A stretch of 64,000 nt of DNA, from contig NOWV01000147.1 in assembly GCA_003344405.1 (NCBI GenBank), forward strand, positions 62,001 to 126,000, in the 5' to 3' direction. The notes below the pieces were generated by a model. It made no database searches. It saw only the letters and a program-made list of their open reading frames with translations, and was not told where the DNA came from. Numbering within the stretch: position 1 is the stretch's first letter; each line of letters starts with the position of its first letter. The DNA is from Trichoplax sp. H2. Lineage: Eukaryota. The position numbers were made by a program, and so were the translations under genes. Shown here piece after piece: positions 1 to 23,828 of the stretch.

Positions 1-3000
1 AGTCGCACCTTTCTGCATATTATTATCGTCTTCTGGACCTCTATCATCGTCTTCTGGACTTCTTTCATCATCTCCGGGACCATCCTCTCCTTCTTCTTCT
101 TCATCTTCCTCATCACCATTACCTTCATCGTCTCTACCGTCTGCTTCATTTCTTTCTTCGTCGTTTTGATCATTAGGATTTCCACTCTCTCCACGCGGCT
201 CAAATAGGTGGTACCCGTTTTCTACAGAAATCCCTTTTCCGTCATCCAATCGTATATTTTCATCGCTCTCTGGATCCATCGAATCTTTTTCAGGAACTTC
301 TGGACGTTCCTTACGATAAACATAGCTATCAGCGTAATCATTAACATGCTCAGGTGGCATATCTTGATCAAAAAGTTTCATTGTTTTCTTATAATTATTT
401 CTCGTCTCCTCTTTGGTTATGATGCCATCCCCATTGGTATCCATTTTTTGTTTAATCTTATTTTAAAAGTAATAATTAGCGATAATTTTAGGTAAAACTG
501 TTCAAGTTTACAAAATATCGCTGTAATAGTTACTTGCTTCCATTCGCTAGTCTTTATTATTTAGATAAAATGCATATAAGCGATTATGATTCATTTTATC
601 TTGTTACGTAATATTACGAATACCTCATTAGCTATCCTTTCAGAACCACCTAATGTTCCCTAGAGTTGAAAATGATCAAACAATTAATTGTCTTAGAATA
701 GAACAAGAGTTCGCATGAAGTTGCATCTTACCACGTAGGCTTCTGTGAATTTCTTGCCATCAAATATGCCTGATTTACCTATGGCTTTCTTAAATATCGG
801 TCTTGAAAACAGCAATTAAACAATTTAGAAGATAAATATTAGATTCTATATAGCACAACTTTATACCGTCATATTTATGTGCTGTAATCACTGTGCGAAA
901 AAACAATATCAGACTAACTGTATATGTTGCTAAGCTATAATTATCCAGTTATATGATAATAAAGAGTAATGTAGCTAAATTGTTCGAGCTTTTATATCAA
1001 CTTGTAATACTTTGACACAATCATCAGCATTATAAGCTTTAATTCAGCACATTTAAGAAACAAAGACACATTACAGTCGATCCCTTAAATTTTTGTAAGA
1101 TTACAGAATATTACTCGAATTTAATTGTATGGAATGGTGCCTAAGAAGATGCCTGATTAAATGCATCTAGAGGTAGTCTATCATAATTTCATCATGAAAC
1201 CAATATTTCATACGAATACTACTGTAAAAGTGAAGTAGTTCACTATGAATTAGATATTATGTCAGAAAATTTAAAAATTTAATTCTAATTATTCTAGGTG
1301 CTAGAATTTTTGAACGTGAAATATCTAATAGAAATGCACACGAATGTTAGATAATTTTCTTTTCAGTACAAATATTTAATCTAATTTATCGAATTTTATT
1401 CGATAGCTTGTACGTAATGTTTATTGAAAGATTTCTATAACTGTAACTTACGAGACTTCACTTCGTGTAAATTGACGATATTCATATTGCAAAGTATTTG
1501 CTGGATCCATTTCATTGAATATAATCATATTTTTCCATGACTGCATAGGTAAAGCCTTGATATCATCAACTGATATGGTTTCCTTATCATCAGTTATTTG
1601 CAAGCTATCTTTGTACTAAAGATAAAATATAGAATCAAATTATTGCTTTGGGCTTGCCCAAGTAGATTCAGTACAGAAAATTCATTCTTAAAATTTCAAG
1701 CATGAACATTTATTTTCTTTCTGCTCTTAGTTACAACGTACTATTTTATATCCTTTTTGATACTTCTCTCCTTCAAATTCACCAAGATAATCCTTTAAAG
1801 TAGAAGATATATTAAATATAGGCAAGATAACATCAAGATTATTTATGACTATCATACGCTTTCAACTAATATGATGAGATTAATTCAAATATGTAGTAAG
1901 CTATAATGCAGAAAATAGTTGCATACCCTGACAACATGCTTCAGTAGTTTTTTTGCGGGTAGAATCGACTTCTTTGCTTTTTTAAAAATATGTAGGAAGC
2001 TATCCCTATTGGCGAATATTTAAATTGCCTTAGTAGGTGAGCAATAGTTATAACGATATATCTACATAAAATTGAACATCTGAAAATAAACCAAGGAACT
2101 ATCCTTTAAAAATGATAACGATATTATCATATATTAAAATTACAGTAACGTATTTGAATAAGTATTTCAAGTTTATATCTAAACCAAAGTTGATATGAAC
2201 TAGTTCTTAGAGATTAATAAAAATATAACCTATAATGCTTAGGTTCATGTAGACCCATCGTTAACGAACCAATACCATCAAAATCCCAAGCAACTTCTAC
2301 ATCTGTCAAATTTTTATACGTTGCATTTTCACAACTTTTGCTATCAAATTTTTTTGTATGTGTTGTTCGGCGAGAGAATAGATATGAGATGGCCATATTT
2401 TTGTCGCCAAAGGATCGCACATGATGTAAAGTACCTAATATTATCATAAGGCAATGTCGAATTAGATTGCTTGTATTACAATTATGATCGAACACTTTTC
2501 AATATATAGCATTAAAATCCAAACCCATAAATTTTACTTTCTCTGAGGTCAACATATACTCATGTTTATAATTATACATATAGTAGTCTTAATCATTCTG
2601 GAACATGGCTCGTACTTAATTACGATCTAATATCAATTTAATATACATAGCTGTTTATAGTCTATTTATGCAATTGGTGGAAACTCGAGTATACATATTA
2701 CATATTGGATCATCGCCTCATTTCAATCTGTAAAGCAATTTCAAAAGCATAAGCTCACCGTAAGGAACATAGAGACAATCGCCGGCAGAGACATTAGCAT
2801 ACCAATACGGACAATCTTTAAATTTGGAGAACTGGATTAAATCAACTTTATCTACTTTTAAAACAGAATAACCGCCACCATCCATTGCTGGTTCTCTTGC
2901 TAAAGGTACCATATGTTCATATTTGGGGCTAATGAGTAACCAGTTTTTGGTTCCATTTAATACACAATTAAGAATATTTGCTATTTATTGAAGAGAAATA

Positions 3001-3771
3001 ACTTGATATCAAAATGTAGCATTACTTGAGGATATCTTGACTTCAAAATGATTATTAATGGTGATTAGAAAATGTTATTCTACTATTCAATAATCTGCAA
3101 GATTAGAGATGGAACTAAATTTCTACTCTAATATTGGCTTGTAGAATTGAATAGGTAAAGATACATTAAAAACATAATGATGTGGACGCCATCTTTTGAA
3201 AAGTAATATCGCAATAGTACGTACGAGCATCCTTGTGTAACAAACTTTTAGTTCCTCCATTACTCATCCAGTAATTGATTTCAACTAAGGAATCCTCAAA
3301 AATACCACAGGATAAGCAAGGTGGAACAAGAATATCGCGATACATTGGTTTAGGCAATTGGGAAACGACATATTTATTTTCTTCGACATAAGTCGTTAGA
3401 AAATTCTTGATGGTGTCACGACCTAAACCTAAATCACCAGCGGGAATACCCTGAGCTTCTTTTTTTTTCTCTAATTTTACGCTATACTTCCCGTATACAT
3501 CTTTTAAGTATTCATCCGTCCATAAAGTTTTAGCTGGAAAATTTTGAGCTGCCCCTTTAAGTAGAACTGGTCGTCTTTTACTAACATATTTAGACCAAAA
3601 TTCTTCAGCTGGATATGGCTCATTCATGATATCTACATGGCCGTCAGAATCACGATGTAAACCTATCTCTTGTAAATGACCCCTTGGAACTTTGCTCGAT
3701 TCTTTTCCATCGATTTTGGCTAAAGAAGCGAATAATAGGCACAAGAAAGTAATTCCTTGCATCCACTTCAT
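1..3771 (-). CDS. JmjC/cupin 2OG-Fe(II) oxygenase + EF-hand secretory-pathway protein, paralog A (3' end runs off window)
   Basis: Manually spliced GT-AG exons 3771-3225, 2980-2759, 2434-2230, 2005-1927, 1792-1742, 1615-1452, 801-732, 659-624, 456-<1 (610 open codons, no stop in window). Signal peptide MKWMQGITFLCLLFASLAKIDG. JmjC motifs LLHKDAPNILNCVLNGTKNW, AGDCLYVPYGTLHHVRS. EF-hand loop DTNGDGIITKEE. D/E-rich tail. Confidence 0.88.
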
Positions 3772-5523
3772 CTTAATCACTTTTACTCGTAAGGGTTGGT
3801 CCCTCTTGTTTTTTTTCAACGAAAATGAAGGAATTAACACCTGTTCCTGTTACATACTAATATATATTATAAAATTCCGTAGCAAACTTAACCTACTAGT
3901 AGTATTCAATCCAATTGGCATTCAATCAGGTTGTCAATAACATTGAAAAGAATAACTTTATTAGCCATTGTGTCGAATAATAACAGCCATCTTTATTGTT
4001 TGAATAATTGAATTAATACCATTGATTTTCCATTTTATCCTCTGATGGGACCAACTTTTATACTTTCACCCTATCTTACTCGTCCTTAGCGATTTTATAA
4101 TACAATGTTGATAGCTCTATCACTGTTTTCTCTTATTGATTGGATCGGAAACCTGTTTTCCCACTGGCACTGCGCTGGATTGATTGGCTTGTCTAGTCAC
4201 GTCGTCAAATCAAGCTATAGTTGGTAGGGATTCCGACCTTCATAGACCACCATTCCTTATCGGCTGCATCGAGAGTTAATTAGCTTGTCTAAATAATGAC
4301 ATTAAAAGAAGTTATAATTGATATAGGCTTGATTTTTAGTGTAGCACATAGTCAACATCGTTGATCACGTTGCACAAGCGCTAAATCTTTACCGGAAGCT
4401 AAATTGAATTATGTTATTCCACAGTCTATTCTTACTTTAAATGATTATAGAAATTTAACAGGTCCTCTCATAATTCGTATACTTAATATCTTTCGTTGAT
4501 GCTATTGAATTGCATTATAAAATTAATATAAAATCTTTTATCCCACTATAGATTCCTAGCAAAGAATGATTCTGTTTCATTTATAATCTTGTCTGATTCC
4601 ACGTATTCAATTTAAGATTATCTATGATACTTTATCTAAGATCAGCTAATATTGACGATCCAACGCTTTTTAGCCAGTTATAACGTTTAAAATATTAGCG
4701 TTTTATATCAATTTCTTCGGTATGCGATACAAGATTCTCGATGATGTTTTGTCAAAGATCGGTGAAAGTAAATAATTCATCACTCTGACTTCTTGTAGAA
4801 TAGATAATAGGGCAAATTCCATTTTTTAAAGAAATATCTGCTATAAATATAGCCTTCGAGAAGTAAAATTGCGATTCTACCATTCATTCTTAATACTTCT
4901 TAGTCTTAGTAAGTATGAAAATAAAATGAAACCAAAACACTATCAACTACAACAAGCGCGATCGGCAAGGAATCGGTAGAACGTTTAATGCATACAATCT
5001 TAACCCCTCCTAGTCTGCTCGTGAAAATAATCTGAAAGGATCAATTCTTCTCGAATAATGCACTTGTTTGAAGAAGCAAGCACCGTAATCATTAATTCAT
5101 AGATGCTCAGTGTTTTCTAGTCTGTGCCATGCAAATAAAAGAGCAGATAGAATTTTCTGCGTAGCAATATCGCAACCTTCGATAAAGCATCGATAACATT
5201 ATCCATCCATTCACAAAATCTTTACATAGAAATCACAAATGTTCATTTCTCATATCATATTACAGCCATACCGATCATAGTAGATTATATCCAGCTGATT
5301 GAGGAAGAATTTCAATATACTTTCTTTACACTAATTCATTTTGACAAGTAAACGTACTATAGTCGATCTACACTGCCGCATTCTCCGAAAATAAACAACG
5401 ATATACGAGTAGGAAAGTAACTTTAATGATAAAATCACGTTGCTTTCAAGGTGATATTAATGAAACTACTTACTGAAAGTTAATATAAGCTGTGGAGGAA
5501 GTTGCATCCGGTGGTTTAGAATA

Positions 5524-5945
5524 ATAATTATCTAATGGAAGATAGTTTTGATTTATAGTAAAAGCAACTACCATGTAATCCCTTTTCAAACTAGGACTTA
5601 CTTATCTACAAGCAAATGAAAAATGCTAACTATCATTTTAGAGATGTTCTAGATAACAAATAGTAGCAAGGCATCAACTTTATCACCTCTACGTATGTTT
5701 ACTGTATGAGTTTGTTTGGTTAGCCATCATCGATCGGCATTATAATTATCAAATGGATGATAGTTTTAATTTTATGGCAAAGCGAGCTGCTATGTCATTG
5801 CTTTTCAAATTAGAGCTTGTCCAAAAGCGAATGAAAATTTCAATTACCATTTTAAAGACATTCTAGTTAAGGAATAACAGCAAACCATCAATCTTGTCAC
5901 CTCTATAATTACTATTAATTTGTATGGTAGGCCATCATCGATCGG
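5524..5945. repeat. Degenerate two-copy tandem repeat, unit about 210-218 bp
   Basis: Collinear blocks recur: ATAATTATC at 5524/5742, GATAGTTTT, CTTTTCAAA, TCACCTCTA, GCCATCATCGATCGG at 5723/5931. Confidence 0.75.
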
Positions 5946-6507
5946 AATAGTCCTTTAGTCGTTCATTACTCTTTTGCTTTTTAAGATTTTAACCCTTTAC
6001 GTACATTAGAAATTAAATTTAAACTAACTACGTGTCTGCGGATGGAGGTTGAAGTTAAAGATTATAAAGCAATACTAAAATTGAATAAGAAATAAAGCTG
6101 TTATGCTATTGATGTTCCTAATAGCAACGAGGATCATTAAAATAGCAATACTTCTATAAAGTACATAGGTAGTACTAAATCGAGAACAAACGCTAACGAT
6201 AATTTTGCCAAAAATATTTATTAAGTGTAATCATTCTCCCTAGAAATACGCCAAAGAAATAATATTGGAACTGTCAAATAAACACTATCGGGCATGTTGT
6301 AGGAGAAATCATTCATGAACGGCAACTATTCTCTCTAAATACACCAACAGTTAATCTAGGCACTAGTAAATATCTAGTAACGATCATTCTGTCAAAGCCA
6401 CTCGAGGCAAATTATAATAATATAAGATACAAATAGGAACAGTCTTTTGGAAACTCCTAATAACGAAATATAACAATAAATGCGAACAGTTGGCTAAGAT
6501 AAAAATA

Positions 6508-9500
6508 TTACAATTCATCGCGAGAAGATTTCTTTTCATTCATTTCATCATTAATGCTTCCACTATCAGTTTGTTCAGGTATCCCTTGGTTTCCGATTTC
6601 AGCAGACTCTTTCTTTAATTCCGTCTCCTCTGATCTTAGAGGATCTTCACCATCCGATATATCACTTTCATTGCTATCTATTTCGTCAACTTTACCATCC
6701 GGATTAGCAAACAAACCTAGAACTTCATCCAACTTACTTAGTCTTTCCTCTTTACTAACTTTTCCGTTTCCGTTAGTATCAAATTTTCTCATAATCTATA
6801 GAAAGAAATTAATTATCATGTTCCATTCTTGCCCTCATTTTCTGTTAATGTACTGTAAATTCTTATATATTAAAGATCTAAAGTACTTTATATATTAAAG
6901 CTATTACTACTGTAGTACGTAGTTATCTAAATTTAAACCTTTTAAATCAGTCATTACCTCGTTTGCTGATTGCTCAGACCCTGATAGTAATTTCTAAAAT
7001 ATGGAATAAACCAGAGTATATTAAATTACCATGGCAATAATGAGAATTTGTCCCAATTTCGTGCTTGCATTGCGGAATTATATTGTCTATAATAGTAAAT
7101 TAATAAATTATTGGATGGTTGTACCTCATAGAAAACGGCAAATTTTCTAGTATTAATTCCTCCAGCTTTATCAATGGTTTTCTCGATTATCGATCTGGAA
7201 ATAGTTATAAAGATTGTGTAAGTATATAACGACAGTAGCAAACTTCTACGGCTAGAAAACCATAATCCAAGACGTATTGTATGCAATTAGAGAATGATTT
7301 TAGGCCAAATGTAGCTCCATAAAATATATTGTATTATCTTTTAGTCACAAGATTATTCATAATTTAGCATTAAATGGTTGATCGCGAAAATATGTACCCC
7401 TAAACTTGATAAGACTTGACTTACCGTATATCTTTCTTTGTATAGATGCGATATTCATATTTTAAAGGATTTTCCGGATCTAAATCAAAGTAGTATATTA
7501 AATTTATCCAAGATTGCAGAGGGAGGTCAGCGATCTCATCAGTAGTGACAACGTTTTTATTCTCTATCTGGAGATTTTTTCGTATCTATGTAGAAGCAAG
7601 TTTTAATTAGTAGCCACATCTATCAATAAAACGTTGCTTACAAATCAGATTAGAGACTAAAATCTTTAGTATCGGCTGGCTTTACTTACTAATTTTATCA
7701 CTTTGTTTATGTGATCAGAGCCTCGATCAGGAATGGTACGCTTAAATAAGTACAGTATAAAATTTAGTTCAATAAGGCTATAAGAATCAAACACCGTCAC
7801 CATGATCAATACCTATGGAAAAACGCTAGAAGTACAATTTTGTATCTTGATTTCTGAAATAACAGGTTTCTTTTAAAAAAAATGATATGCTACCTTGAGT
7901 CTCCTTAAAAGCACATCAGTCCTTATTTTTTTCTTGCCTTTAAATGCTTGAAATGCAGCTTCTCTATTTCAAGTGAAGAAAATAATTAATAAATTGAACA
8001 AAATTGGCCAAACTACTACTGCTATCAATTCCAATCTTAACATTTCACTTTTTCGTAGAAATTAAAATCTCAAACGTAAGGTTTCAAGAATTTAAAATCT
8101 GTCAAAAGAATCGTGATTAATGTGTAATATTAGATTTTCATGATGATGAAATTCACAGCGATGGCTTACTCAAAGTATAAAGTTATAGATACACAAATTT
8201 AAAATTTAGTATGTAACAATTTGGTATGTAACTTAAAATATTGAATCTCTAGAATCATTAACTAAAAAATTGTAATAAAGTCCAGCAGTAACATTGCTTA
8301 ACAAAATTTCTTCCAAGCTTGACGGCACAGAATTAAACTTGTAAAAACCTGTATAAATTAGGATCTTGCAAATCAACAACTGGGGTTGTATGGCTATTAA
8401 TTTGCCAATCAAACATGGGGTCCCGAATATTTTTATATTTCGACGTTTGACAATCCTGGTTGTTAAACTTTTTCAAATGCGATACGCTTTGAGAAAATAA
8501 AAGCGAAACACGCATATTTTTAACACCATCTGTTCTTACTTGATACAAAGAATCTGAAAGGTAAAATTAATAAGAATTACCAAAAAACAACTATCATAAC
8601 CTAAGTAGCTAATATTCAGGCCTTAAATTCTCTTATTAAGTTTCTTCAATATGTTTATGCAATTACAATTGACGGATTTGGACCTAAATAATAGGCAACT
8701 AAAGCGAATATATGCTTTGCTGCACTTTCTCCTACTTAGTGTAAACCATATAATTCATTTCTTTTGCCTTAAGGTGACTATAGTAATCGGAAAACTTACC
8801 GTGAGGAAGATAGATGCAGTCTCCTTTAGCTAAAGTAGCATTATAGTATGGGCAATTTGAAAATGCTGAAAATTTCTGTAAGTCCACTTCATTAACTTGT
8901 AAGGCAGAACGTGTACTTCCATCTTTGGCTATCTCTTCTACCATGGGTACAAGATGTGCGTGTTGATTATCGATTAATATCCAATCACTCGTTCCATTCA
9001 ATAAGCAATTGATCGTATTAGCTATTGGCATTAAAAAGAATTTGTGTCAAGGCAGAAACGGAGTCATTATTATTATAAATGGATTGCTATAAATAATACA
9101 TGTATAGTATGTAGTGGTAGTTAAGATTATTAGTACCAAGCATTTTATCTCAATTATTCTATTTGCAGTTAATACGTATAACTTTTTATCTAACAGAACG
9201 CTATTAAGTAGTAATACAGTCATTTTACAACATAGCTACCAATATTATAGAAGCAGTAGCTCTTATTACTGATATATACGGTAGGATAATGATCAAAGCT
9301 GTAACTTTAGTAGTCTCTTTGGTAAAGCCCTTCATATCTGCAGTTTTTTTATTTTTGCATAAAACCCGTTAAAGACTTCGCAGTGTTAAGGAATAACTCG
9401 TATAAGACTTCTAATCCTAATAGATAGTATCTTGGGTGTGAAGCACGTAAGATGGATGCCTAATAAAGAGCTAAAGATTATGATGATTTCAGTTAATTAC

Positions 9501-11310
9501 AGGAGTGATGTGTTAGGGGATAAGAACCCATACACTGCAAAGATCTATCCGATAGCAGTACTCCTACTTCTGCTCATTAATTGTGCAACGGGTAAGCGTT
9601 CATAACTATGAACATTTATCTTCCTTGTCTCCTGTCTACGTGTATTCTAACGCCCTTTAACCCGAATTTATGGCCAAACTGTTACAAATTTCACTTAAAT
9701 CGGGAATTACAACATACGAAGCCAAGTGCATATAAGCATTGACTAAGAACTTTGCGTGACATATTTACCTTAATTTTTGAGTTCATGAAGGATGCTGGTT
9801 CTTATATTTATAGTGCAGATATTACCAAACCCAAGCTCAATCAGAAGGAATCGTAGGATACATTAAAATGCTACAGATGACCGTCAATGTGGGTCAGTAT
9901 GCTCGCATTATTATTGCAATTTGAAATGTCTTAGACTAATTTACTATTGCTCGTATAACTCATCAATATAGTACGAGACAAAGGGGAGATGAAACACTTT
10001 ATTTCAACAACTATAATATTGACCAACCTATTCTATTTGCCGATTTGTGATTGATAGGAACAGTAAAATGGACATATCTTATCAAGACCATCTCATTACA
10101 ACTTGTTAAAGTACCGTAATCATCTGCAATCTTATGGCTTCAATACTGTTTATATATCTAATGGTGGAATTGATTTAAGAAGTTACTATTGATCAACTGC
10201 TATTCCCGTGCTCTAAGATTCTATCGAGAGTTAAAGCGTTGCACATCGCTAGCGTACGCCAAGAATACTTCGAGTACGGAATAGATTTATGTCATACGAA
10301 ATTTACTGTATACCCTCAATAGGATTATCAGGCAAATCTTGTAAAATCTTGACGAATAACATATGGAATCTTTCGATCATAACAGAAATCTATTCCAATA
10401 TTTCATCATGCCAATGATCAACATTAATATAATAAAAACGTTATAAGGCATCTGGGTTATATGTTGGAACATCAATTTTGATTCTTCTAAATGCTGTTTG
10501 ATGAAGTAAAGAAAGAGCTTACACTACATAACGTCATTTCGGTCTGCAATATTAGAGCGAGTGCGGTGCTTATTAGAGCTATTAATCGACTATAATATCT
10601 TACCATGCTAACATCATTAAATAATAGTATACGAGATAATATTTACAAAATCATAATAAATTTTCAAGTGCCCATTTCAGCAGTTACATACGCATTGATA
10701 TGAGGAAATTGATGTATCTAACAAAGTCAGCTTTCACTAGTGAAGCTGATGAATATGCTCTTAACTTACAAGCATCTTTCCGTAGCGAACTTTTACTGTT
10801 ACCGGTGTTAAGCCAAACATGTACATCAATCATAGCAGTTGTAAATGAGCCACATGAAAGGAAAGGTGGAATTAGCACATCGCGTTGCATGGGTTGAGGC
10901 AATTGAGAATCGATGCATTTGCTTTCATTGACATAAGTTGATATAAAATCATTCAAGGATTGGCGTTCTAGATGCCCTTGGTCATTAGAGATTTCTTCCT
11001 TTTCATTGATTTTAGCAGAATAAATCCAATAATTTCCATAAAAATTTCTTAAATAATCATCAGTCCATGAGTCTATCGCTGGAAAATCTAATGCCGCTTG
11101 CTTTAGTAAGACTGGTCGCCTTTGACTAACATACTTGCTCCAGAATTCTTCGGCAGAAATCGGTTCATTGAGTACATCAATATGCCCTTCAGCAGCACGA
11201 TGTTGTCCTAATGGTTTAAGATGGCCTTTAGGTAACTTATAATTGTCATCCGCATTGCCCTGATTGACCAAGATAGCAACTAAAAATAACACAGTAATTT
11301 TATAAGTCAT
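6508..11310 (-). CDS. JmjC + EF-hand ER-resident protein (RDEL), paralog B; predicted catalytically inactive
   Basis: Exons 11310-10770, 9021-8800, 8553-8349, 7963-7894, 7740-7690, 7585-7425, 7194-7125, 6993-6958, 6795-6508 (547 aa). Signal peptide MTYKITVLFLVAILVNQGNA. Motif equivalents SLRKDASNTINCLLNGTSDW and PHDSLYQVR. EF-hand DTNGNGKVSKEE. Ends SSRDEL-stop. Confidence 0.88.
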
Positions 11311-11418
11311 TTTATGTCCACTTGGTAGCAATTTGAGATGTAATCGAGTGCACCCTAGGGAATGAATAACTTTGTGGTGGGACTAATATTATGTCTTGCT
11401 AATTATACTAACCTCTAT

Positions 11419-11426
11419 TGACGTCA
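11419..11426. promoter_or_regulatory. Palindromic CRE/ATF-type element TGACGTCA upstream of paralog B
   Basis: Perfect TGACGTCA about 110 bp upstream of the B start codon; function not demonstrable from sequence. Confidence 0.35.
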
Positions 11427-13429
11427 AGGGAAAACCCGCATAACAATGATGAATTCGTTCTTTCATAATATTCTATTCTATTAGACTAAGCCAACTAATG
11501 TATAAGCTTGACAAAATACGTTTAAATCAATAATTGCCTAAACAAACAATAGCCTGGTAGCCATCGCTGTCAATAAAATTGGCGTAGGTTGTGAAATATT
11601 TAAAATTAATTTGTCAAATTTACTACTTATGAATACATATAAACTGTAGCCTAGGAAAGAGGCAAATAGATCTATTCCCTTAGCATTCTGATCGGTGCCT
11701 TTATCCTACACAGAAAAAGTGAATAATGAAGTGATAAGTACAAGTTATATAGCTACGATGATAGTGAAGAATAACTTAGAGTAACGATTATGGTCTATCT
11801 AGTCAAGTGTAATAACAAAGGCCTTCTGATTTATTCACTACTTCGGTCATTAGGGTTGACTACAGACTAATTTAATAAAATACAGACGTAATCATTTTCA
11901 CTAAAATATTACTATCTTGCTATAATATTATCGTTGTGTAGCGAGTATTAATGAACAACTTATGATTATATTTTGCCTTACAAAATCAGTTTAAAGCTAA
12001 ACTGTTCATTTGCTCTTCGATAATGTTGGCATTTGCAGATCTCAAGTATAATTGCACCAAATAGTAGGAAGTAATTGCATATAAATGTAATTATCAGTTT
12101 CAGTACTATTTCCATCGTCTACTATGTTAAAATTATATGATTCTTAAGGTATATATTATGATAGTAAAGTTATCTTTATTAGTAGCAGGCGCAAACGAAG
12201 GAAATCAATGAACGTAAAGGACCTAATATGCTGCAGTATCGATTCTAATAATTTCTTCAGACTGATTTATTATTGTCAGGTTTCACGTCCTAGAAATCCG
12301 TAATACTTCATGGAGAAAGTATGAAATAGGCGCCTAAGCTATTGCCCTACATCAAATTTCGGAGTTGGATTTATTAAATTTTCACCTTAGTAACAACTAT
12401 CGTCCTCACTAATTAAAATAAATGGTTACAAGCTTAACTATCGATAGGCGCTTATAGACATATTTTACTTAGGGTTATTGTAAAGGGCTTATTAAACATT
12501 CTTCGTCATTGCCAGATACATTATAGGAAGTTTTGAATGGTGGATTATCAATTTAATTGATACAGCAGTGCTCAATTTATCTGATTCAAGCATTCCCAAA
12601 CGCTTACTAAGAAATTACTTCGACATTTCAACAATTTCCATTATATACACAGTTACATAACAGCTAAACGGCTATATCTCGCTTAATTAAGCCAGCTATC
12701 TATATTATAAAGGACCTGCATGTCTATCATTGATATCAGCTGTTCAAAATTATATCTACAATATAAGCATTACTTTTGAGCTGTGGTGGAAATATAAAGT
12801 TAATTTCTTTATTGAAGAGCATGAAAATACAAAGTACCACGATAATTTGTTACATCAACTGCATTAGTGAAGTACAATACTAGTAGGGAAAATATGGATT
12901 GTAAACCTTATTTATGAAGGTTGTTGTGAAGCATGGGAGATAGATATGATATACCATAAAAGTCAAGTTGTAATATAGTTTTGCCAACTGGGAGGGAATC
13001 ATGGAATAATTTTAAACTTGGGGTATTTTACGACAATTAAATAATGCGCTATAGATTCAATGGTATTATCGTTAACCAGCTAATTTCTATGATTAGCATG
13101 CATAACTTAAATAAATTCATTCCATAATGAAGCTAATACAATTCTCTAACGCTCAGAATCCCTGTAGAAGCAATTATGTTTATCATTTCTATTCCATGTT
13201 AATAAATACATAGTTATAATCCAAGTAATTAGGGTAAAGCATCATTCAGCAATGCTATCATAACAAAAAAGTTTACTGAGCAGAAGATACCGTAGTAACA
13301 TCTACAAACTTACACAAATTGGCAATATGTCACTAAACCTGGACTACGTGTAGAAAAAATTTTAAAGTATTGCTACCTTGATAATGTATAATCGCCATAA
13401 TTGGCTAGAAATTGTTACTACAGCACCCA

Positions 13430-16400
13430 TTACAATTCATCACGAGAATCTCGGTTGGGATATTCGTCGGCGTCTTCGTCTTCATCTGGCATCTGCATTT
13501 CTTCCTCCTCTTCATCGCCATTTCCTTCATCCTTATTTTCTCCCTTAGTTGCAAGTTCTTTTCGGCTCGTAAAAAGTGGATCTTCTCCATCCTCGAACTG
13601 AGTATAACCTTCTTTCACACGAATTCCTTCACCTTCCCCTTTTCGGTAAAAATCATACTTTTTTTCCGCATCACCATCATAGTAGATTTCCATTGGATCA
13701 ACCTTTGGCACCTGTTCCCTTTGATCGCGATACACAAAAACATCTGCATAGTCGTTAACGTGTTCAGGTGGCATATCATCTTCAAATAAGTTTAATACAC
13801 GTTTCATGTTCTTTTTTCGTTCCTTTTTGCTGATTTTGCCATCTTTATCGTTGTCAAACTCTTGTATAACCTATATAATCATCATCAATAAATTGTTTAA
13901 AGGTTGGTTATTATTATTTTCATTTTATGAATTACGCGTGTGTTATAGTCGTCAAAATCGAACAAGATAAAACTTTTATTAGCTCGCGTTCTATATGATA
14001 TTCTAACTAATATATACAAGAGAAATACTAGAAATGCGCTGACCTCAATAGCTACTCGTTCCGATCCACCCAGGTTACGCTAGATAAAAAATATTTTATA
14101 GCCGTTCAAGCCAAGCATTAAATAGAAGCTCTAAACCTAATTCGATAGCTTAAATATTATGTGTAACGCATTCAAAGCTTAATAATATTTGCATATATAA
14201 AAATTTACCCTATAATATTCTTTAAATTGTTCACAGTCAATGCCACCCTTTTCATCTTTTACTTCACGAAAGACCTCCCTATAGATCGTCAAAATGCGAT
14301 AATAACATATAAGATTAGGTTTGAAAGCAAGCAATTTTTACGCAGAAGTTCCAGATATAATAATCAACATAATTAAAATTATTGTATAGCGCAATTTATT
14401 ATTGCCGTTCTACCGATGATGATCACGCACAATTTTAACAAATCAAGTATCCAATACAATTAACAAAGCTATGGTATCCTTTTAAAATGGATATAGGGAA
14501 CAATCCTGCAAACTTTTTAATTGATATATTGTAAATAGGGTACAATTATTGATACCTCATTTGATCTTTAGTAAACAAGCGATACTCATATTGTAGTGTG
14601 TTAACAGGATCCAATTCTGATATGAAAATTATCGGTTTAAACGCATCCATAGGTAAAGCCGATATTTCGTCCACGGTGATAAATTTTTTATTTTTCAATT
14701 TAAAGTTTTCAATAGCCTATATTAGAAAACACCTATTTCTTACTCTCTACGGTGTATATGCAATATGAAATATCAAGCATAGATTTCAATAGATTCAAGA
14801 TAGACTGGATAATTAATATAAATTGCATTCAGTAATTTTTGTTGCAACAATAATATAATCCATGGTAAGATAGAAATTCCTGTAAAGTGCTTACTTTCTT
14901 TCTTGCTTCACGTCTTTTTTGTGGATCTTCCGGAAGTATAGTCTAAAACGAATCATTTTAGGTGATTATTGAGCTAGATATTCCTGATTTGTCATAAATA
15001 TATTGCCAATGAAGTAAGCCTTGATATAGATAAGTGCCTTATTCCAATTATCGTTGCAGTACTTTTTAGCTAAACTATTCGTAAGATCAGCTGATGACGT
15101 AGGAAGATAGCATGATTGCATAAAAAATGAAAATATTTTCATACTGCTCTGTAGTTTTTGGTAATCTACTTAATGTCATCTTATAAAATTGTTGTAGAAC
15201 GTCGTTAATAAAGCAGAAATTGATAACGGTTAATTCTATGATTCTTTATATTCTACCGAACATTATTTTCGTAAAATTGTAATAGAATGTTCTTAGTAAC
15301 GTGATGGCTAATGATATTTTAGCATTATTACAACATATACTTTCAGTATTTTTAGTGCGCTACGCCATGATACGCGATCTTTATTAAATTACACTAAACA
15401 TATCTGAAGCTATTGTGCTCCAAAATATAATTCTCTAGTATTATATCAACATCTAGAGTTTCTGAATAATTCATATATCATTTTCTTCCTCTACAGTATC
15501 GCTTATAGCGGATACTGGATATTATATCAATTCAACATCTATACTAAGTGTAGCAATACCTGTCCTATCCTTTTCATGAAGAGTTTAGTAGTTATATTCT
15601 TCTTTCCTCGGAATGCGCGTAATGCTGCTCTCCTATATGTTTATTATTAAGATTAGTGAACACCTAAGCATAAATTTTCAACTGTATCGTGAAAATTAGT
15701 GTCGCTGAAAAGTAGTAGTGGGCAGTATAAGCCTTCTTTCTTTAACTGACAGAGTAAATATTCGATTGATTAAAATGTTGTTAATACATTATTCTCATTA
15801 AACTTTGTGTCATATAACTTATAAGAGTTGTTCTCATATTTGCTGACAGTTAGAGCCGATCACAGATCAACTACAGTATGTCGTCAATTTTTGTTTTAAG
15901 AGCATACCTGTATACTGCTGGTTCTTGTAATCCCATCGTCAGTGTCGTGGCCCCATCAAAATCCCAAGCAACTGTTGAATCCGCTAAATTTTTAGGTCCT
16001 TGTTTCTCACAACCGGCGTCATTAAACTCCTTAGTATGCGATAAACTGCGAGAAAACAAAAAGGACACGGCCATGTTTTTTTCGCCGTATGATCGGACAT
16101 GATGTAATGTACCTAAAGAGACGATGACGAGTTAATCAATTAACTTTTCTTAGTTATAGACGCTATGGTCGTTCGCAAAAATAAAGTTTATCCATTAAGA
16201 CATTAGTTGTTAATATCTTACTTTGCTCTATTTATTATTATATAAAGACATTATTAAGAGAAAATTGGTAGTCGATATTAGATCTTTGAAATTATTTTTT
16301 CGGTTAAATGTTGTTGAATGATGCAACTTACCATAAGGGACGTATAAGCAATCTCCTGCTGATACGTTAGCAATATGATATGGGCAATCGCGGAATTTTG

Positions 16401-18277
16401 AGAACTGGATTAAATCGACCTTGGTTACTTTAAGTACAGAATAACCTCCACCATCCATAGATGGCTCTTTTGCCAATGGTACCATATATTCATGCTCAGG
16501 TCTAATCAAAATCCAATCTTTCGTCCCATTGAGTACACAATTGAGGATATTGGCTATCGAAAATTGAATAATTACATGAACTTAAGATTAATGCGTATTA
16601 TTTGCGATTAAAGCTATATTAAAACTACAGCAACAAGGCCTTATAATTCAACGTGCTTAATGAAATGCTCACGGGGCGACGAAAGAGTACGTTCAAGTCA
16701 CGAGAATTGCAACAGTTAGTCAAAATGAAATAAAATCTACATGGTATACTACATCTGGCAGAGTCTTAGAGATTCGATGACAAAATCAGGGCTTCTGGTT
16801 CATTTGATGATCAGATAAATTTGAAGATTTACGAACTTGTACATATATCATCCTTAATATTAGCGAGATTCATATGGAAGCAATGACAAACTAAATTGAT
16901 CAAAGAATATCTCCAGTTATTCATCCAGAAAGGCTTCGAACCAATGGTCTTTCTAGCGTAACAGTAAATTAAGTCTAATTTAAAATAATGCTATCGGTTC
17001 CACGTATTTTATAATTTTCTTTTTGAGTCTGAAGTTCATATTTTTGTAATCTAATTGAACACATTAGCAAACAAGGATTACTATTTCAGTAATCGTGTTT
17101 ATAACACTTTCTAACCGTTGATGCTTTTATTAATAAGAAAAGTTTTTCTCTCATTTATTAAATCAATCATGATCGTCAAATGAATGTTTAAGCGATCCAC
17201 CCATCTCTAACGTAAAGTCAATATTAGTGAAGTAGTAAACAAGCATGTCTCCAAGCAGTCTTGCGTTTTCTTTCTGCCACCTTCTATCTTAGTAAATAGG
17301 AAATAGACTACGATAATTATGCTATACTAATTATCATAGAAAAATAATAAACTATTTCGCATCTAAGAGATAAGTTTAACAGTCCTTTGACAATCGATTG
17401 AAATAAAAAAATGACAATGCCAAGACGAGAGACTCTTAACCTTATACAACGTGATGGATATGAAATATGTACAGTTTACGTTTAAGTAATATTGATAATT
17501 GAATCTTAGTTAGGGCTCAAATGACGAGTCGTAATCGTTGCTCTTTAATTTTTGACTACACTAATCTCGTCATAATTAAAAATTAACTTTTATAGGCTAT
17601 ACAATGTGCATAGAAACACAAACTCAAGATTATGATTGCGATGTGAAAAGTATCCAAGTAACAGATCAGTAATTTGATCCTGCTAGTATGTCATTGCTTA
17701 GGAGTTTAATGCATTTCAAATTCTACTTACGCGCATCTTTGTGTAGTAAACTCCTGGTTCCACCACTACTCATCCAGTAATTTACTTCAACGATAGAATC
17801 ATTAAAATCACCGCATGCTAGACAAGGAGGAACTAAGACGTCGCCGTACATCGGTTTAGGGAGTTGAGAAACGATGTACTTATTCTCCTTAACGTAAGTT
17901 GAAACAAAATGTTTAAGAGAGTCGCGAGCTAAGCTAACATCACCGGCTGGATATTGATAACCTTCTCTTTTGCTCTCTAATCGAACATTTAAGTGGCCAT
18001 ACTTTTCCGATATGTACGAATCAGTCCATAAAGATTTGGCCGGGAAATCTTTAGCGGCTCCCTTTATAAGTACCGCTGTCCTTTTACTAACATACTTTCT
18101 CCAAAATTCTTCTGCTGATGGTATTTCTTGCAAAATATCAATATGACCTTCCGAATCGCGGTGTAGCCCTAAATCCTGCATATGACCACGAGGGACTTCT
18201 TGCTGACTCTCCTTTGCCAAAGATAAATTGGCGATTGCCAACAAAAATCCAATCAAAACGACGTAAAAACGATTCAT
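13430..18277 (-). CDS. JmjC + EF-hand ER-resident protein (RDEL), paralog C
   Basis: Exons 18277-17731, 16553-16332, 16112-15908, 15632-15560, 14942-14895, 14716-14556, 14278-14209, 14079-14044, 13870-13430 (600 aa). Signal peptide MNRFYVVLIGFLLAIANLSLA. LLHKDAPNILNCVLNGTKDW ... GTLHHVRS. EF-hand DNDKDGKISKKE. Acidic tail ending SRDEL-stop. Confidence 0.9.
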
Positions 18278-20479
18278 TTTTTATTCGCCAATTTACGTCA
18301 AAAATTGTATCTCGTCGTAACAACGGCCACTAAACTTGATCTATTCCAAGACGCAGTAATCGTGACTAAATGAACTGGATGGCTAAACCACTAGTTAAGG
18401 AAACTATAGAATGAAACACTTCTTTTGTTTATCCTTCTTATTCTTATGATGATCTAACATTCATCAGGTCGTCGATGAACAAACAGTTCCTTGAATAGAT
18501 GACGTCTATTTATTAATTCATATTTAACTTCCATCAAATAAATTATCAATTAGCTCTAGTCGATTATCTACATCAATAATAGGCGTCTTTTATGACTTAC
18601 AGAATCGTAATAGGATATAGACTCATATAGTTATGGCACAAAACATTCAATATGTAAAGTTAAAAGCTTTCAATTGTCCTTATTTTAGCCTATTAAGAAA
18701 TTACTACTATTTAAATTCAGTAGATTCCACCCATATGAACCGATTGTGAACCGAACTCTTGGCATATCTACTGTTATTCGACATGAATTACAAACAGCTA
18801 AATTAATATTAAATGCTGCTTCTATATATTATAAGCTGAGAAATGACTTTATTGTGATTAGATTAATATACTGATTCTGAATAATATGGAAAATATAGAC
18901 GTCGCAGATTATATAAATTTTTAGCACATAAAATTAAATTTCACTTTTTGAGTAAGAAATACCTTATGCTAATCGCCAATGATCGATCACTAATTAATTT
19001 AGGGTTATAGTAGTTCTAAATTGAAACAAAGAAGCAACATTTTATTAATTATAATTGCTGAATATTATGTGATGATGACAGTAAGACGACGCTGAAGAAA
19101 TGGCAAAGGATCATTTGTCATTGGACTAGCCAAGGAAATGAAGCTTTCGTCTAGTTTAACGCATACTGTATTTACTCGTATACTGAGTGATCATGAGATT
19201 GATGTGTGAAAATGTTTAGTCTAGGGTAGTAGCTAATTGAATCATTACCATTTCACTAAGTTGGATCGTTAAATAGATAACAATTTAAGATAGAATATCG
19301 ATAAAAATCATCTTTGAAAGTGATTTAGACTTAATATAAGAAAAAGTTCTTTCGATTCCCATCCACCATTTCACAAAGAACACTCAGAATTTACAGAAAT
19401 CATATTTTTGTTGTCAACTTATAACTAATATCACTTGATAACATAGACATGATGATGAAAATAATGATTTCAATTTATGGTTTATTTTGATCAGAATGTT
19501 CACGATAATTTCGCCACAAATGTTAGCACTATGTAATGAAAATATTCAACAACGTAGATGTGATATAAATTCATCACCATTTCGAACACATTCTATTAGT
19601 TTTACTTTGTAGCTTTCAGTGAAGAGCTACCGTGCTAAGATAACTCAACTTTAATTCCTGTGGTACTTGCAAGTTTCATGCCACGATTTTAGGTGGTAAA
19701 TTGAATTCTTATTCATTCATTTTTAAATCATAGTATCATATTATTTATTACGGAGACTTTCTATAGTAAAAATATCATATTAGTGATTTAAAGCATGAGA
19801 AACTGCCTGCTAGTGGGTCGAAAGGGGAAGGGAAATTATTTCGTTGAATAGCTTGAGTGCTCGTAGCAACGCAGTTTTTTAATCAAAAGTCAAATTCAAA
19901 ATTCAAAAGTCCAACAATGTGACGTTAGCTAGTAATAATATATTAGAAGTCAAATTTCGTACAAGTAACTACTAGCACATACTGAAATATAAATAGATCT
20001 TCGTACTTTTTGATATGGCAAAAGGATTAGCCATCGATAATATCGAAAGAAACTTTAGTAGATCGTGAAACAGTAGAGCTTATTATCATCGTCATTATTT
20101 ACTTTCTATGCCTTTTCTTAGCATGATAAAAAAAAGTTCGGCTCTTATAGCTAATTCTATTGTTATAATTAACTGTCTATAATCGTATAGGTGTGCCTAT
20201 CATTGAATTTTACGTGATTTTCACCAAATACAGTCATAAAAAGAAACCCTATGCATGTCTGTGATGTAGCGAAAGCTTAGAAAAGGAATACGGTAACAAA
20301 GCTCCAAGCGTTTTATAGATTACTTTCGACTGTGGCCAATTTACTTTAGCGCTTAGTATCTATATTTATACCACTCATTTCATAAGCAAGACTAAATGAG
20401 ATATAATAATTAGAACGTATCAATTCTTATCACATTAATTCCTGAACTTATTTTATTGCAAATACATTATGTACAAATT

Positions 20480-23400
20480 ATGGATGGCAATAACAAATAC
20501 TTTGTGTTGATACTGCTCCATTTGTCACTAGCTTCCACTCATACTCTGCGTGGTCATTTACAACCTCTCGGTTTTCAACGTGATACTGATGGCGATATAA
20601 CTACTCTTTCTATCTTACCAAGCAATGAAGAGTTTTATCAACTGTTGATAAACAAGGAGACTGCTTTACTTAAAAATGCTGCTAAGCGTAGTCCAGCTAT
20701 TGATCACTGGACAGAAAAATATTTAAAAGAAAAGTATGGCAATCTTACACTTAAACTGGAAGGGAAGAGTGAAGATCAGACAAGACCGGAAGGAAGCTTA
20801 GGCTTAGGATTTGATACTATTAGTAACTTCATTGACAGCTACCATGTCCAACCAAAGTATGCGGTTACACAATTACCTGATCCAATGCGTCATGAAATCT
20901 TCGTTATGCCATTTATGAGATGTGGACCCTTATCCACGAGTGTTATTGAAAGCCATTTATGGATGAGCTCAGGGCAAACCAACAGCAGATTACACCGAGA
21001 TAACAGTAAGACTACATTAGAAGTAAACCAGTATCCATGTCCATTTTGATAGCCAATTTTACTCAATATCGAATGAGATGCCAAGAAATAATGTCTATAA
21101 CAACATTTAAAGAAAAAATCTAAATAAAAACTTTCAATATAGATAGGCTCTTTATTGTATCTTAATGTTAATTTATAAATACTCGTCCAAAACATTTATA
21201 AAACGACTGAAATCATTCATTCCCTTACTCTTTTTAGCTTATACTCTTCATTGTTCAATTAAAGGCAGGAAAGATTGGATACTAATGGACTCTAAACATC
21301 TAGATAAAATGTACATTAATAATCAGGTGGACAATTTCTCAGGATCATCTTCTATCAACCCAGACCGTGTTAATTTACTACGATATCCTCGTATTGCTGA
21401 GATTCCATTTAAACAGGGAAATATTACTCCTGGTGATTGCATTCTGGTACCGCCAGGTACGAGAAAGATAGTCTCCATCAGTATGACGACACGATGAGTT
21501 AGTTGATTCGTCCTGTAGTAAATTTTTTTCTCACTGCTTATTTTCAGTTTCTAGACGCTTACTACTACACTTGTAAAGTACTCGAAAGCTATCCGAGACA
21601 TTGCTAATTATTTTTAATTAACTTGAGAATTATCCACTCTAGTCACTTTAAGGCGCGGTACAACTTACTATTTAATATAGTCAACACATCTTCTTTAAAT
21701 AAAGTAGGATCTGATTAATAGTTTAAAGAATGCACTTCCAACAATCGTTGTTAACTGATGTATAAAACTAAATGTGCATTCAGGTATGGTCTCAAGTAAT
21801 TTAACACAATTTTATCATTGACGACTAAACCGCCTGTACTATCCTTGTTTAATATGCATCATTGCAAACAATATTGGTAGTGATTGTAAAGTGCGTAATA
21901 CTGTAATTCTACTAATATGCGGTAGCTGATTTCTTCTAAGCTTAAAGTAATCTATTGCATATTTCAAAAGGTTGCGCCCATCAAGTTCGTTCTCATGGCC
22001 CAGTGAATGTTGCCTTTACGTTTTTATTTGAAATTACTGATGACAAACTGAAAAATTTCAATCCTATCCATTGCAGTCAAGACTATGTACCACTAAGTCA
22101 ATACCACCTAAGTTGGAGCTACTCAGGTAGTGGAATCCTTAGCATGGGGAATTCTGAATCCAACACATTTAGGTACGGTACTATGGATTCTTTAGAGTTA
22201 CCTTCTAGTGTGGTGTAGCAGTATTAATTAACTTACCTTTATATATCTTGATTTTCTTGATAATTTACTCTACAAGAAGCAGTTACTACAACAAGATTCT
22301 GCTGCAGTTTGCTGTTTAATTTTTAAAACCGTTTTTGGAATTGGTAGTCTGTCACTATTACTTAACTGTCCATTATCATATCATAACTTTATCCTAAGTA
22401 TTAATTAGTTACCGTTCAATTCATGGTTCATGAAGATACATCAGACTTGGACAATAAAGCTTGACGATATCATTTTATATGTAGGAAGGAAATACTAGAA
22501 CAATGGTTTGGAAAGCGTACTAAAATCCATTTTAATATAATTCAGGATACTTTTGAAGGGGTAATACTTGATTTGAAACTTACCGTTGATGTCTGTTACA
22601 GATTTTTGATCGAATTATTTTCTATATTAGCTACTGAAGTATTATCCTAAAGAAGCAACTAAAGTCACCACACTAGTGAAAGACATTGTAAGTTCCTGTC
22701 AGTTTGCATCAGTGTAAGAGCATAGCCTATAGCAGTGTTCATTAGATTATGAAATAATGAAAAAGTGTGACTTTCTCCCTGTAATTCGTTTTTGGGGCCA
22801 TCATCTATCCGCTCCTTGAAGCTAAAACAATATAATGCCATTAATTCGAATGAAATCGTGTCGAGAGAAAGATGTGAGTCTATTACAATAGAAGACTGGA
22901 GGAAATTCCAATTTATAATTGAATCAGCAACCAATATTCAAAACAATCCTGACTACGAGTACTATCTTACTAGCTACAGATTAGTTAGGTATTGCTTCAG
23001 AATGATCATACAGTTAACCAATATAAATGAGGAATTCATGCCAATAAAATAAATGATAATGCATTTTTTTACAGACAAGTAGCCGAAAAAGCAGTGGTCG
23101 AAACCTCTGGTTTATTTGACAAAATTAAGTTTAAGAACAGTTATAGGGTAAATCAAATTTGCGTCAAATCACTTTTAGTATCTTATATGTTGCGTGTGCA
23201 TATATGTATAATATACCGCAAGCCTCCAATCTGTAATTAATCTCATGCTGAAGGCATTCATTCGATTCATTCTTATAGGCTGCGGGTGGCTCGGGGGCAT
23301 TCGCAGATAAAGTAAGTCAATCAATCTAGCAGTAATTATGATTATAGTCGTATATCTTTACCAATAGTATATTATTTTTAAGTTTTATCATCAAAGTAGT

Positions 23401-23828
23401 TATTATTGCTGATATATTAATGTTGTGCTACATCAAGTACTTAAGGTGTTAATACGCCTATAAGTACCGTACTGCACTGATCGATCATCACCGTCTCCGT
23501 TAATAGCTCTTAATTGTATACTTGACCTCTTTCGACATAATAGATCCTTACAGCCTTGGATTCGAATCAAGACGGACTAATAACTATAAGTGAGGTTGCT
23601 AGTAATCTAGATGTAGCATTAGAAAGTTATAAATTGGTTGAGTATGATGATGATGTCAATGTACCATCCGACGGAGAAGGAGGTAATCAGGAAGACGATG
23701 AAGACCGCGGTGGCGCAAGTGAAGAGGAAGATGAAGGAATAGATTCAGAAGAAGATCCTGATGTTGAAAATAAACAAATGACTTCGTCGTCCGAATATCA
23801 TAATAAGAAGAAACACGATGAATTATGA
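20480..23828 (+). CDS. JmjC + EF-hand ER-resident protein (HDEL), paralog D (most divergent, inverted)
   Basis: Exons 20480-21005, 21238-21456, 21971-22172, 22485-22560, 22631-22687, 22822-22988, 23075-23147, 23279-23311, 23544-23828 (545 aa). RLHRDNTYTLHCSIKGRKDW ... PGDCILVPPGCAHQVRS. EF-hand DSNQDGLITISE. Acidic tail ending KHDEL-stop. Confidence 0.88.

Follow-up and report, generated by a model that had tools for sequence, protein, structure and literature searches.

We analyzed a 64,000-nucleotide stretch of the genome of Trichoplax sp. H2 (contig NOWV01000147.1, positions 62,001 to 126,000; hereafter the window), whose first 23,828 nucleotides carry four adjacent paralogous genes, A to D, encoding JmjC-domain proteins. 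We conclude, with a probability of roughly 0.7, that A to D are tandem paralogs, expanded within their lineage, that belong to the HRJD family of metazoans, the JmjC genes retained in highly regenerative animals (Cao 2019, PMC6390904), and that A, C and D are hydroxylases of the endoplasmic reticulum (ER) lumen while B is non-catalytic. In all four products a signal-peptide-like N-terminus and a GHxxxLGxHR motif precede a JMJD5-like JmjC/Cupin_8 domain, which is followed by a four-EF-hand-like domain and a disordered acidic tail. The original prediction, made from the DNA sequence, had proposed four paralogs of this architecture; spliced models bore this out, and stop-to-stop open reading frames in the region contain the motifs that it listed.

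Putative secretory signals and the catalytic domain

All four N-termini have, by eye, a hydrophobic core of 11-13 residues followed by S-L-A or G-N-A. N-terminal hydropathy maxima were 2.6-3.7 for the Trichoplax adhaerens proteins P0001, P0089 and P0111, which represent genes C, B and D. At the other end, B and C terminate in RDEL and D in HDEL, as had been predicted, and the end of A lies outside the window, as had also been stated. We fetched 228 relatives and retained 171 of them, those with an initial M and a length of at least 380 residues, dropping the other 57 as fragments. Of these full-length relatives 131 have an -EL end and 94 match the pattern [KRHQSA][DENQ]EL, the commonest tails being RDEL (23), KDEL (22) and HDEL (21); a 9-residue N-terminal window with a mean hydropathy of at least 2.0 was found in 152/171. 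Four cysteines (C155, C188, C251 and C291) were invariant in all 63 members of the family alignment, and N-x-T/S sequons occurred at N191 in 37/63 and at N245 in 28/63. Because xDEL tails, hydrophobic N-termini and the four cysteines are conserved family-wide, the predicted ER-luminal location is strengthened and appears well supported by sequence; taken together, the secretory signs would sit badly with a protein of the cytosol or nucleus.

The Cupin_8 family of Pfam matched the whole of P0001 with an E value of 1.1e-28 (101 bits; cutoff 27.4) and was present in 63/63 aligned members. An AlphaFold2 model of P0001, made from the 63-sequence family alignment, had a predicted local distance difference test score (pLDDT) of 84.7 and a predicted template-modeling (TM) score of 0.80. 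Blocks across residues 31-480 averaged above 90 except 101-110 (84), 211-220 (77) and 351-360 (89), and the tail, residues 490-600, was disordered. The best solved match of this model in Foldseek was human JMJD5 (E 3.9e-16, TMt 0.83-0.85). VIA-align, run on the whole model and testing residues 33-387 only, likewise placed JMJD5 at the top (Z 24.4, root-mean-square deviation 2.5 over 225 residues), followed by TYW5 (22.5), Drosophila JMJD7 (dmJMJD7, 21.5) and FIH (21.1). Superposed on JMJD5, the modeled gene C protein is predicted to adopt the double-stranded beta-helix fold. The family profile searched against the PDB gave the same leader, with E values of 2.3e-33 for JMJD5, about 1e-24 to 1e-27 for JMJD7, 5e-15 for TYW5 and 1e-11 for FIH. 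JMJD5 was thus the top match by sequence (1.4e-13), profile, Foldseek and VIA-align among solved structures, a set that does not include JMJD8.

The residues expected of an Fe(II)- and 2-oxoglutarate (2OG)-binding site were conserved as follows: H179 in 62, D181 in 63, K194 in 62 and H260 in 62 of the 63 aligned members, the sole exception each time being P0089, the gene B protein. The HxD...H triad and the 2OG-binding lysine are complete in C and D and, from an alignment of the paralogs, in A, and incomplete in B. Gene B has Arg, Ser and Tyr at the Fe-binding His, the 2OG-binding Lys and the distal His, both in the copy in the window and in P0089, and these substitutions are unique among the 63 members. 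The fold and the four cysteines are retained in B, as are its N-terminal motif, EF4 loop and RDEL end, and its terminal branch in a maximum-likelihood tree is long, 1.12 compared with 0.29-0.43 for A and C. We consider B to be probably an expressed pseudoenzyme. The original prediction had called all four products protein hydroxylases; this does not hold for B, because three catalytic residues are absent, and it stands for A, C and D to the extent that they keep all four residues.

The motif G-H-x3-[LI]-G-x-[HQ]-R directly follows the predicted signal-peptide cleavage site in A to D. Its residues were well conserved among the 63 members (G31 in 59, H32 in 60, G37 in 63 and H39 in 57), and the strand that carries it was modeled with a pLDDT of 96. 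The motif could serve in metal binding, in substrate binding or in a structural role.

Gene structure, transcripts and the EF-hand domain

The window is AT-rich, with a GC content of about 0.28-0.36. Gene models were obtained by spliced protein-to-genome alignment, using several guide proteins for A, B and D, and gave nine exons in each gene, the number predicted, with GT..AG at 8/8 introns in every model. Exons 4, 5 and 7 of gene A were placed by weak similarity alone. A, B and C are arranged head-to-tail on the minus strand, and D, on the plus strand, points away from C. The proteins of A and C are 56% identical, B is 41-42% identical to either of them, and D is 29-35% identical to the others. 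Gene C matches T. adhaerens TRIADDRAFT_64017 (P0001, 600 residues) at 592/600 residues, and its exon 1 is 99% identical.

Identical intron phases had also been claimed for all four genes. Phases of 1,1,2,0,0,2,0,0 were found in A, B and C, whereas exons 4-6 of gene D admit two equally legal models with phases of 1,1,2,0,2,2,0,0 or 1,1,2,0,0,2,0,0, so that the phases claimed for D are possible but unproven. The public T. adhaerens models of B (P0089) and D (P0111) are each one exon short relative to their paralogs, lacking exon 5 and exon 6, respectively. The missing exon of D (22822-22988, a model-based assignment) encodes the conserved motif NxxYEY.

We placed contigs of X8 and X13 (labeled RNA-Seq), X5 (RNA by guess) and X1 (DNA-like) on positions 3901-23900. 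All 8 introns of B and all 8 of C were present in RNA contigs, with joint ends of CT..AC on the plus strand, equivalent to GT..AG on the minus strand. For gene C, 7 of the 8 listed joints were present in X8, X13 and X5, and joint 16109>16329 was present in X13 and X5 only. For gene B, 7/7 listed joints were present in X8, X13 and X5, and the joint of exon 1 to exon 2 lay inside one X8 contig. X1 had an even depth of about 58-95, behaved like DNA and contained 0/15 listed joints. Since all introns of B and C are represented in RNA, the exon for the EF-hand, acidic tail and RDEL is joined to the JmjC exons in transcripts, and the claim that these parts belong to one gene product is borne out for B and C. 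The RNA contigs also prove exon 5 of gene B (7740-7690), which P0089 skips, and a piece of an X5 contig terminates exactly at the exon-1 donor of gene D, position 21005. RNA contigs run about 950 bases past the gene C stop (12484-13429), with X13 record 11 spanning 12484-13868; this extension of the gene C transcript to about 12484 is probably a long 3' untranslated region (3'UTR).

A canonical EF-hand loop has 12 residues and the pattern D-x-[DNS]-x-[DNS]-G-x-[ILV]-x-x-x-[DE]. The fourth loop (EF4) of each of A to D fits this pattern (sequences in Table 1), and it is the only canonical loop of the four; the last exon of gene D had no Pfam match, though its loop, DSNQDGLITISE, fits. EF-hand families of Pfam matched up to 22/63 aligned members. 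The C-terminal part of the family profile matched NCS-1, neurocalcin, hippocalcin and KChIP weakly (E 4e-7 to 6e-4). Modeled in isolation, the domain had a pLDDT of 85.1, and DSSP showed helix-loop-helix units. The Foldseek matches listed for it were all EF-hand proteins (troponin C, centrin, calmodulin, GCAP, obelin and ALG-2), at E values of 1e-3 to 2e-2 (best 1.2e-3) and nearly all over 160-190 columns. We read the modeled C-terminal domain as two-lobed, four-EF-hand-like and similar to calmodulin or troponin C. The tails that follow EF4 consist of 32-38% Asp and Glu and have a net charge of -14 to -35.

Ca2+ binding had been predicted as a trait of the family, and this was not upheld. Because a canonical-like loop was found in only 25 of the 63 members (at the EF2 position in 11 and at the EF4 position in 11), Ca2+ binding is, judged by these loops, lineage-variable. 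EF2 (reference position ~371) is canonical in sea urchins, a brittle star, Glandiceps and Sycon, and EF4 (reference ~460) in the Trichoplax cluster, octocorals, the ascidian Phallusia and Corticium; the Sycon protein P0053 has both.

Relation to HRJD and competing explanations

The published accounts of HRJDs fit A to D closely. Their architecture is given as a JmjC domain and an EF hand motif only (Nagai 2024, PMC11295675), and Cao 2019 (PMC6390904) reports KDM8 as their nearest human paralog by BLAST and 16 copies in T. adhaerens, the largest count. A to D share with them the JmjC and EF-hand combination and KDM8 as nearest human paralog, and their relatives have the phyletic spread described there: sponges, placozoan, cnidarians, hemichordates, echinoderms, amphioxus, tunicates, molluscs and a chelicerate. 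A to D are most likely among the 16 T. adhaerens HRJDs; we infer their identity with the listed genes, no TRIADDRAFT identifiers being given in the main text of Cao 2019 (PMC6390904). An indirect link comes from the tunicates, in which the Ciona HRJD ortholog is named 'Mina53-like1' (Cao 2019, PMC6390904) and the Phallusia 'Mina53-like 1' protein P0030 falls in the family of A to D. Against the HRJDs as described in these papers we see no structural difference in A to D; the difference is interpretive, an epigenetic role having been put forward for HRJDs (Cao 2019, PMC6390904; Nagai 2024, PMC11295675) where we propose one in the ER.

The original prediction had not recognized a characterized family. 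The name HRJD, the architecture and phenotypes are in fact published: according to the HRJD papers, knock-down in planarians impairs regeneration and ectopic expression lengthens fly lifespan. The family is biochemically uncharacterized, as the prediction implied, and Nagai 2024 (PMC11295675) states its molecular function to be unknown. Neither 'signal peptide' nor 'endoplasmic (reticulum)' occurs in the main texts of PMC6390904, PMC11295675 and PMC11077316, and 'KDEL' is absent from the main text of PMC11295675, the one HRJD text searched for it. Literature searches aimed at an ER-retained JmjC/EF-hand family found no description of one. The ER-luminal reading appears to be unpublished for HRJDs.

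A search with P0002, a coral-like relative, returned 88 proteins, all 'uncharacterized' or with transferred names, from corals, anemones, octocorals, sponges, amphioxus, hemichordates, echinoderms, tunicates, molluscs, a nemertean and a bryozoan. An exhaustive search yielded 1856 representatives with E values of 1e-3 or lower, 152 of them at 1e-30 or lower, and named cluster members further include a crinoid, a jellyfish, a sea spider and, surprisingly, lampreys. No protein with a planarian name was among the 88, and there was no planarian HRJD among the 17 proteins from a profile search with the family alignment (A1) and no flatworm-named member in the clusters of 30 representatives.

According to the HRJD papers, vertebrates have lost the family. 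Four lamprey proteins (P0261-P0264, from Lampetra planeri, L. fluviatilis and Lethenteron reissneri, 377-447 residues) cluster at 90% identity with P0183, the lamprey cluster representative, in which a GH..PLG.H motif and an -SDEL end were read, in the representative only. Because of this clustering, the HRJD family may survive in jawless vertebrates.

A maximum-likelihood tree, quickly built from 49 rows and midpoint-rooted for drawing only, grouped A, B and C with the fragment P0097 with a Shimodaira-Hasegawa-like approximate likelihood ratio test value (SH-aLRT) of 100. This clade adjoins one made up of TRIADDRAFT_27062 and cnidarian and deuterostome proteins of about 520-550 residues. Gene D had a long branch (2.09) and no supported placement. 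A tblastn search with the gene C protein found no additional copy in the 26-64 kb part of the window. The array probably continues past the window, because TRIADDRAFT_57495 (P0102, C-terminus LDEL), TRIADDRAFT_57498 (P0239) and TRIADDRAFT_27062 (P0032) share a public 5.98 Mb scaffold with TRIADDRAFT_64017. P0239 is 64% identical to A across exon 1 and P0097 shows 72% identity to A; no counterpart of gene A itself was present among the fetched proteins.

Among known systems, JMJD5/KDM8, an arginyl C-3 hydroxylase (PDB 6f4n, 7dyw and others), comes closest to the catalytic domain of A to D in both sequence and structure. The alignment with it spans family profile positions 48-274 only and shares the HxD...H triad, the lysine on the next strand and W/S residues around the 2OG site. 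Nothing in the solved JMJD5 constructs corresponds to the signal peptide, to the GHxxxLGxHR strand with the four conserved cysteines, or to the C-terminal EF-hand domain, acidic tail and xDEL. The compartment logic proposed here is that of two other groups. ER 2OG oxygenases (the collagen prolyl hydroxylases P4H and P3H, PLOD and AspH) carry out Fe/2OG chemistry on secretory clients and, differing in subfamily from A to D, are not JmjC/Cupin_8 proteins; CREC proteins (reticulocalbin, calumenin) combine EF-hands or acidic Ca2+-binding stretches with HDEL/KDEL retrieval and have no catalytic domain. JMJD8 resembles A to D in having a JmjC domain of the JMJD5/JMJD7/TYW5/FIH cluster, an N-terminal signal sequence and a location in the ER lumen (PMC5684140). 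It differs in that His replaces the Asp of the Fe site and that there is no additional domain, where the family has D181 and an EF-hand domain; the same paper suggests that an uncleaved signal peptide acts as its anchor and does not mention KDEL. Orthology to JMJD8, which we compared by its published description, was rejected on the basis of HxD rather than HxH (D181 in 63/63), the EF-hand domain and the published BLAST result that places KDM8 nearer.

From the gene structure, splicing, fold class and residue conservation observed here we infer ER residence, catalysis, Ca2+ binding and a class of substrates as follows. A short signal peptide of the cleavable type would take the products of A to D into the ER, where the four conserved cysteines may form disulfides, and the KDEL receptor would retrieve the products through RDEL or HDEL. 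The JMJD5-like site of A, C and D would use Fe(II), 2OG and O2 to hydroxylate side chains of secretory-pathway clients, and by analogy with JMJD5, JMJD7 and FIH the target could be C-3 of Arg, Lys, Asn, Asp or His. Together with the acidic tail, the EF-hand domain, whose EF4 would be loaded at the Ca2+ levels of the lumen, could tie stability, folding or activity to the Ca2+ store. The gene B product would most likely bind without turnover, as a substrate-binding or regulatory pseudoenzyme. Somewhat less confidently than for the array, we also think it probable that the whole HRJD family consists of ER-luminal hydroxylases, often Ca2+-linked, that act on secretory clients rather than chromatin, that the reported cytoplasmic localization is an artefact of an N-terminal tag, and that Trichoplax has in addition evolved an expressed dead paralog, B.

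Several points weigh against this reading. The signal-peptide call was made from hydropathy and, by eye, from small residues at -3/-1, and the C-terminus of gene A falls beyond the window, so its tail tetrapeptide is not visible. No -EL end is present in 40/171 full-length relatives. The EF-hand Pfam matches on P0001 (E 7e-5 to 5e-3) are all under the curated cutoffs, the best being EF-hand_6 (22.7 bits; cutoff 25); the Foldseek matches of the isolated EF domain are weak, with none at an E value of 0.001 or lower and TM scores of 0.25-0.3; and 38/63 members are without a canonical-like EF loop. Finally, ectopic HRJDs were cytoplasmic, not nuclear, in fly cells (Nagai 2024, PMC11295675).

This last result, obtained with FLAG-tagged proteins, and the nuclear location of the nearest human paralog, KDM8/JMJD5, as cited in the same paper, favor the published view of HRJDs as cytosolic or nuclear epigenetic factors (histone demethylases or regulators), in which the hydrophobic N-terminus and xDEL would have no targeting role. 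Such a view struggles with the conservation of xDEL-type ends (131/171), hydrophobic N-termini (152/171) and four invariant cysteines. Moreover, the localization constructs, of planarian proteins, carried 3xFLAG at the 5' end (Nagai 2024, PMC11295675), so the tag would precede any signal peptide. None of the closest solved relatives (JMJD5, JMJD7, TYW5 and FIH) is called a chromatin demethylase in its PDB entry; the names given there are those of hydroxylases or of a tRNA-modifying enzyme. We give a cytosolic or nuclear role only a slight chance, the slightest of the explanations weighed here. Entry into the secretory pathway followed by action mainly past the ER, in the Golgi, secretory granules or the extracellular space, would suit the many non-classical tails of the family (HTEL, HGEL, KTEL, HDEF, HDDL, and those without -EL), if such xDEL variants are weakly or not retrieved, as well as the non-cell-autonomous effects of HRJD clones (Nagai 2024, PMC11295675). 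The tails of B, C and D are among the classical forms that are commonest in the family. KDEL receptors accept RDEL, KDEL and HDEL, and to our knowledge the 2OG/Fe(II)/O2-dependent enzymes so far known in the secretory pathway act in the ER; both count against action beyond the ER, which we regard as unlikely.

The remaining explanation is that all four products are non-catalytic luminal proteins, Ca2+-binding or chaperone-like in the manner of CREC proteins or calreticulin, that reuse a JmjC scaffold. Gene B, still expressed without its catalytic residues, would fit this, and the combination of EF-hand domain, acidic tail and xDEL resembles the arrangement in reticulocalbin, calumenin and calreticulin. 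The full triad and the 2OG-binding Lys are retained in 62/63 aligned members, including C and D, and the paralog alignment shows the same for A. This points to selection on catalysis, and we consider a wholly non-catalytic array quite unlikely.

HRJDs are of interest as genes kept in highly regenerative animals, with regeneration and fly-lifespan phenotypes and a function that has been discussed as epigenetic. If the ER-luminal hydroxylase reading is true, the search for substrates would shift to secreted, matrix and membrane proteins, and tagging strategies for HRJDs would need to change. Alongside JMJD8, the family would also be another, independent JmjC lineage resident in the ER and would add to the few 2OG oxygenases there. 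The Trichoplax array offers a natural pair of active and dead paralogs, C and B, for functional tests.

Feature coordinates and neighboring sequence

Table 1. Positions in the window of the features of genes A to D and of three further reading frames.
Feature	Position	Strand	Remark
Gene A	1..3771	-	at least 606 aa, 3' end beyond window; homology-guided spliced model
Gene A exons	3771-3225, 2980-2759, 2434-2230, 2005-1936, 1792-1742, 1615-1452, 801-735, 659-624, 456-1	-	
Gene A HxD	3237-3229	-	
Gene A Lys194	2948-2946	-	
Gene A distal His	2426-2424	-	
Gene A EF4 loop	441-406	-	DTNGDGIITKEE
Gene B	6508..11310	-	547 aa, likely pseudoenzyme; spliced model and RNA contigs
Gene B exons	11310-10770, 9021-8800, 8553-8349, 7963-7894, 7740-7690, 7585-7425, 7194-7125, 6993-6958, 6795-6508	-	
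Gene B R177-K-D179	10782-10774	-	in place of HxD
Gene B Ser	8989-8987	-	in place of 2OG-binding Lys
Gene B Tyr	8545-8543	-	in place of distal His
Gene B EF4 loop	6780-6745	-	DTNGNGKVSKEE
Gene B RDEL	6522-6511	-	
Gene C (TRIADDRAFT_64017)	12484..18277	-	600 aa; includes probable 3'UTR; spliced model and RNA contigs
Gene C coding exons	18277-17731, 16553-16332, 16112-15908, 15632-15560, 14942-14895, 14716-14556, 14278-14209, 14079-14044, 13870-13430	-	
Gene C signal-peptide-like segment	18277-18215	-	residues 1-21
Gene C N-terminal motif	18187-18158	-	GHMQDLGLHR
Gene C H179-K-D181	17743-17735	-	catalytic residues
Gene C K194	16521-16519	-	catalytic residue
Gene C H260	16104-16102	-	catalytic residue
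Gene C EF4 loop	13855-13820	-	DNDKDGKISKKE
Gene C RDEL	13444-13433	-	
Gene D	20480..23828	+	539 or 542 aa; spliced model
Gene D outer exons	20480-21005, 21238-21456, 21971-22172; 23075-23147, 23279-23311, 23544-23828	+	
Gene D exons 4-6, one alternative	22485-22560, 22631-22713, 22866-22988	+	
Gene D exons 4-6, other alternative	22485-22584, 22713-22736, 22822-22988	+	
Gene D H172-R-D174	20993-21001	+	
Gene D Lys	21270-21272	+	
Gene D distal His	21979-21981	+	
Gene D EF4 loop	23559-23594	+	DSNQDGLITISE
Gene D HDEL	23814-23825	+	
Transposase-like frame, Tc1/mariner type	53095-54180	+	361 codons, uninterrupted; HTH_28 1.9e-8, DDE_3 4.1e-8
506-codon frame	57810-59330	+	several hydrophobic stretches; no Pfam match
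471-codon frame	62586-63998	+	open at window end, many cysteines; Somatomedin_B 7.5e-6

Three further reading frames lie elsewhere in the window, all on the plus strand. The 361-codon frame, uninterrupted and with two Pfam matches, looks like a Tc1/mariner-type transposase gene.

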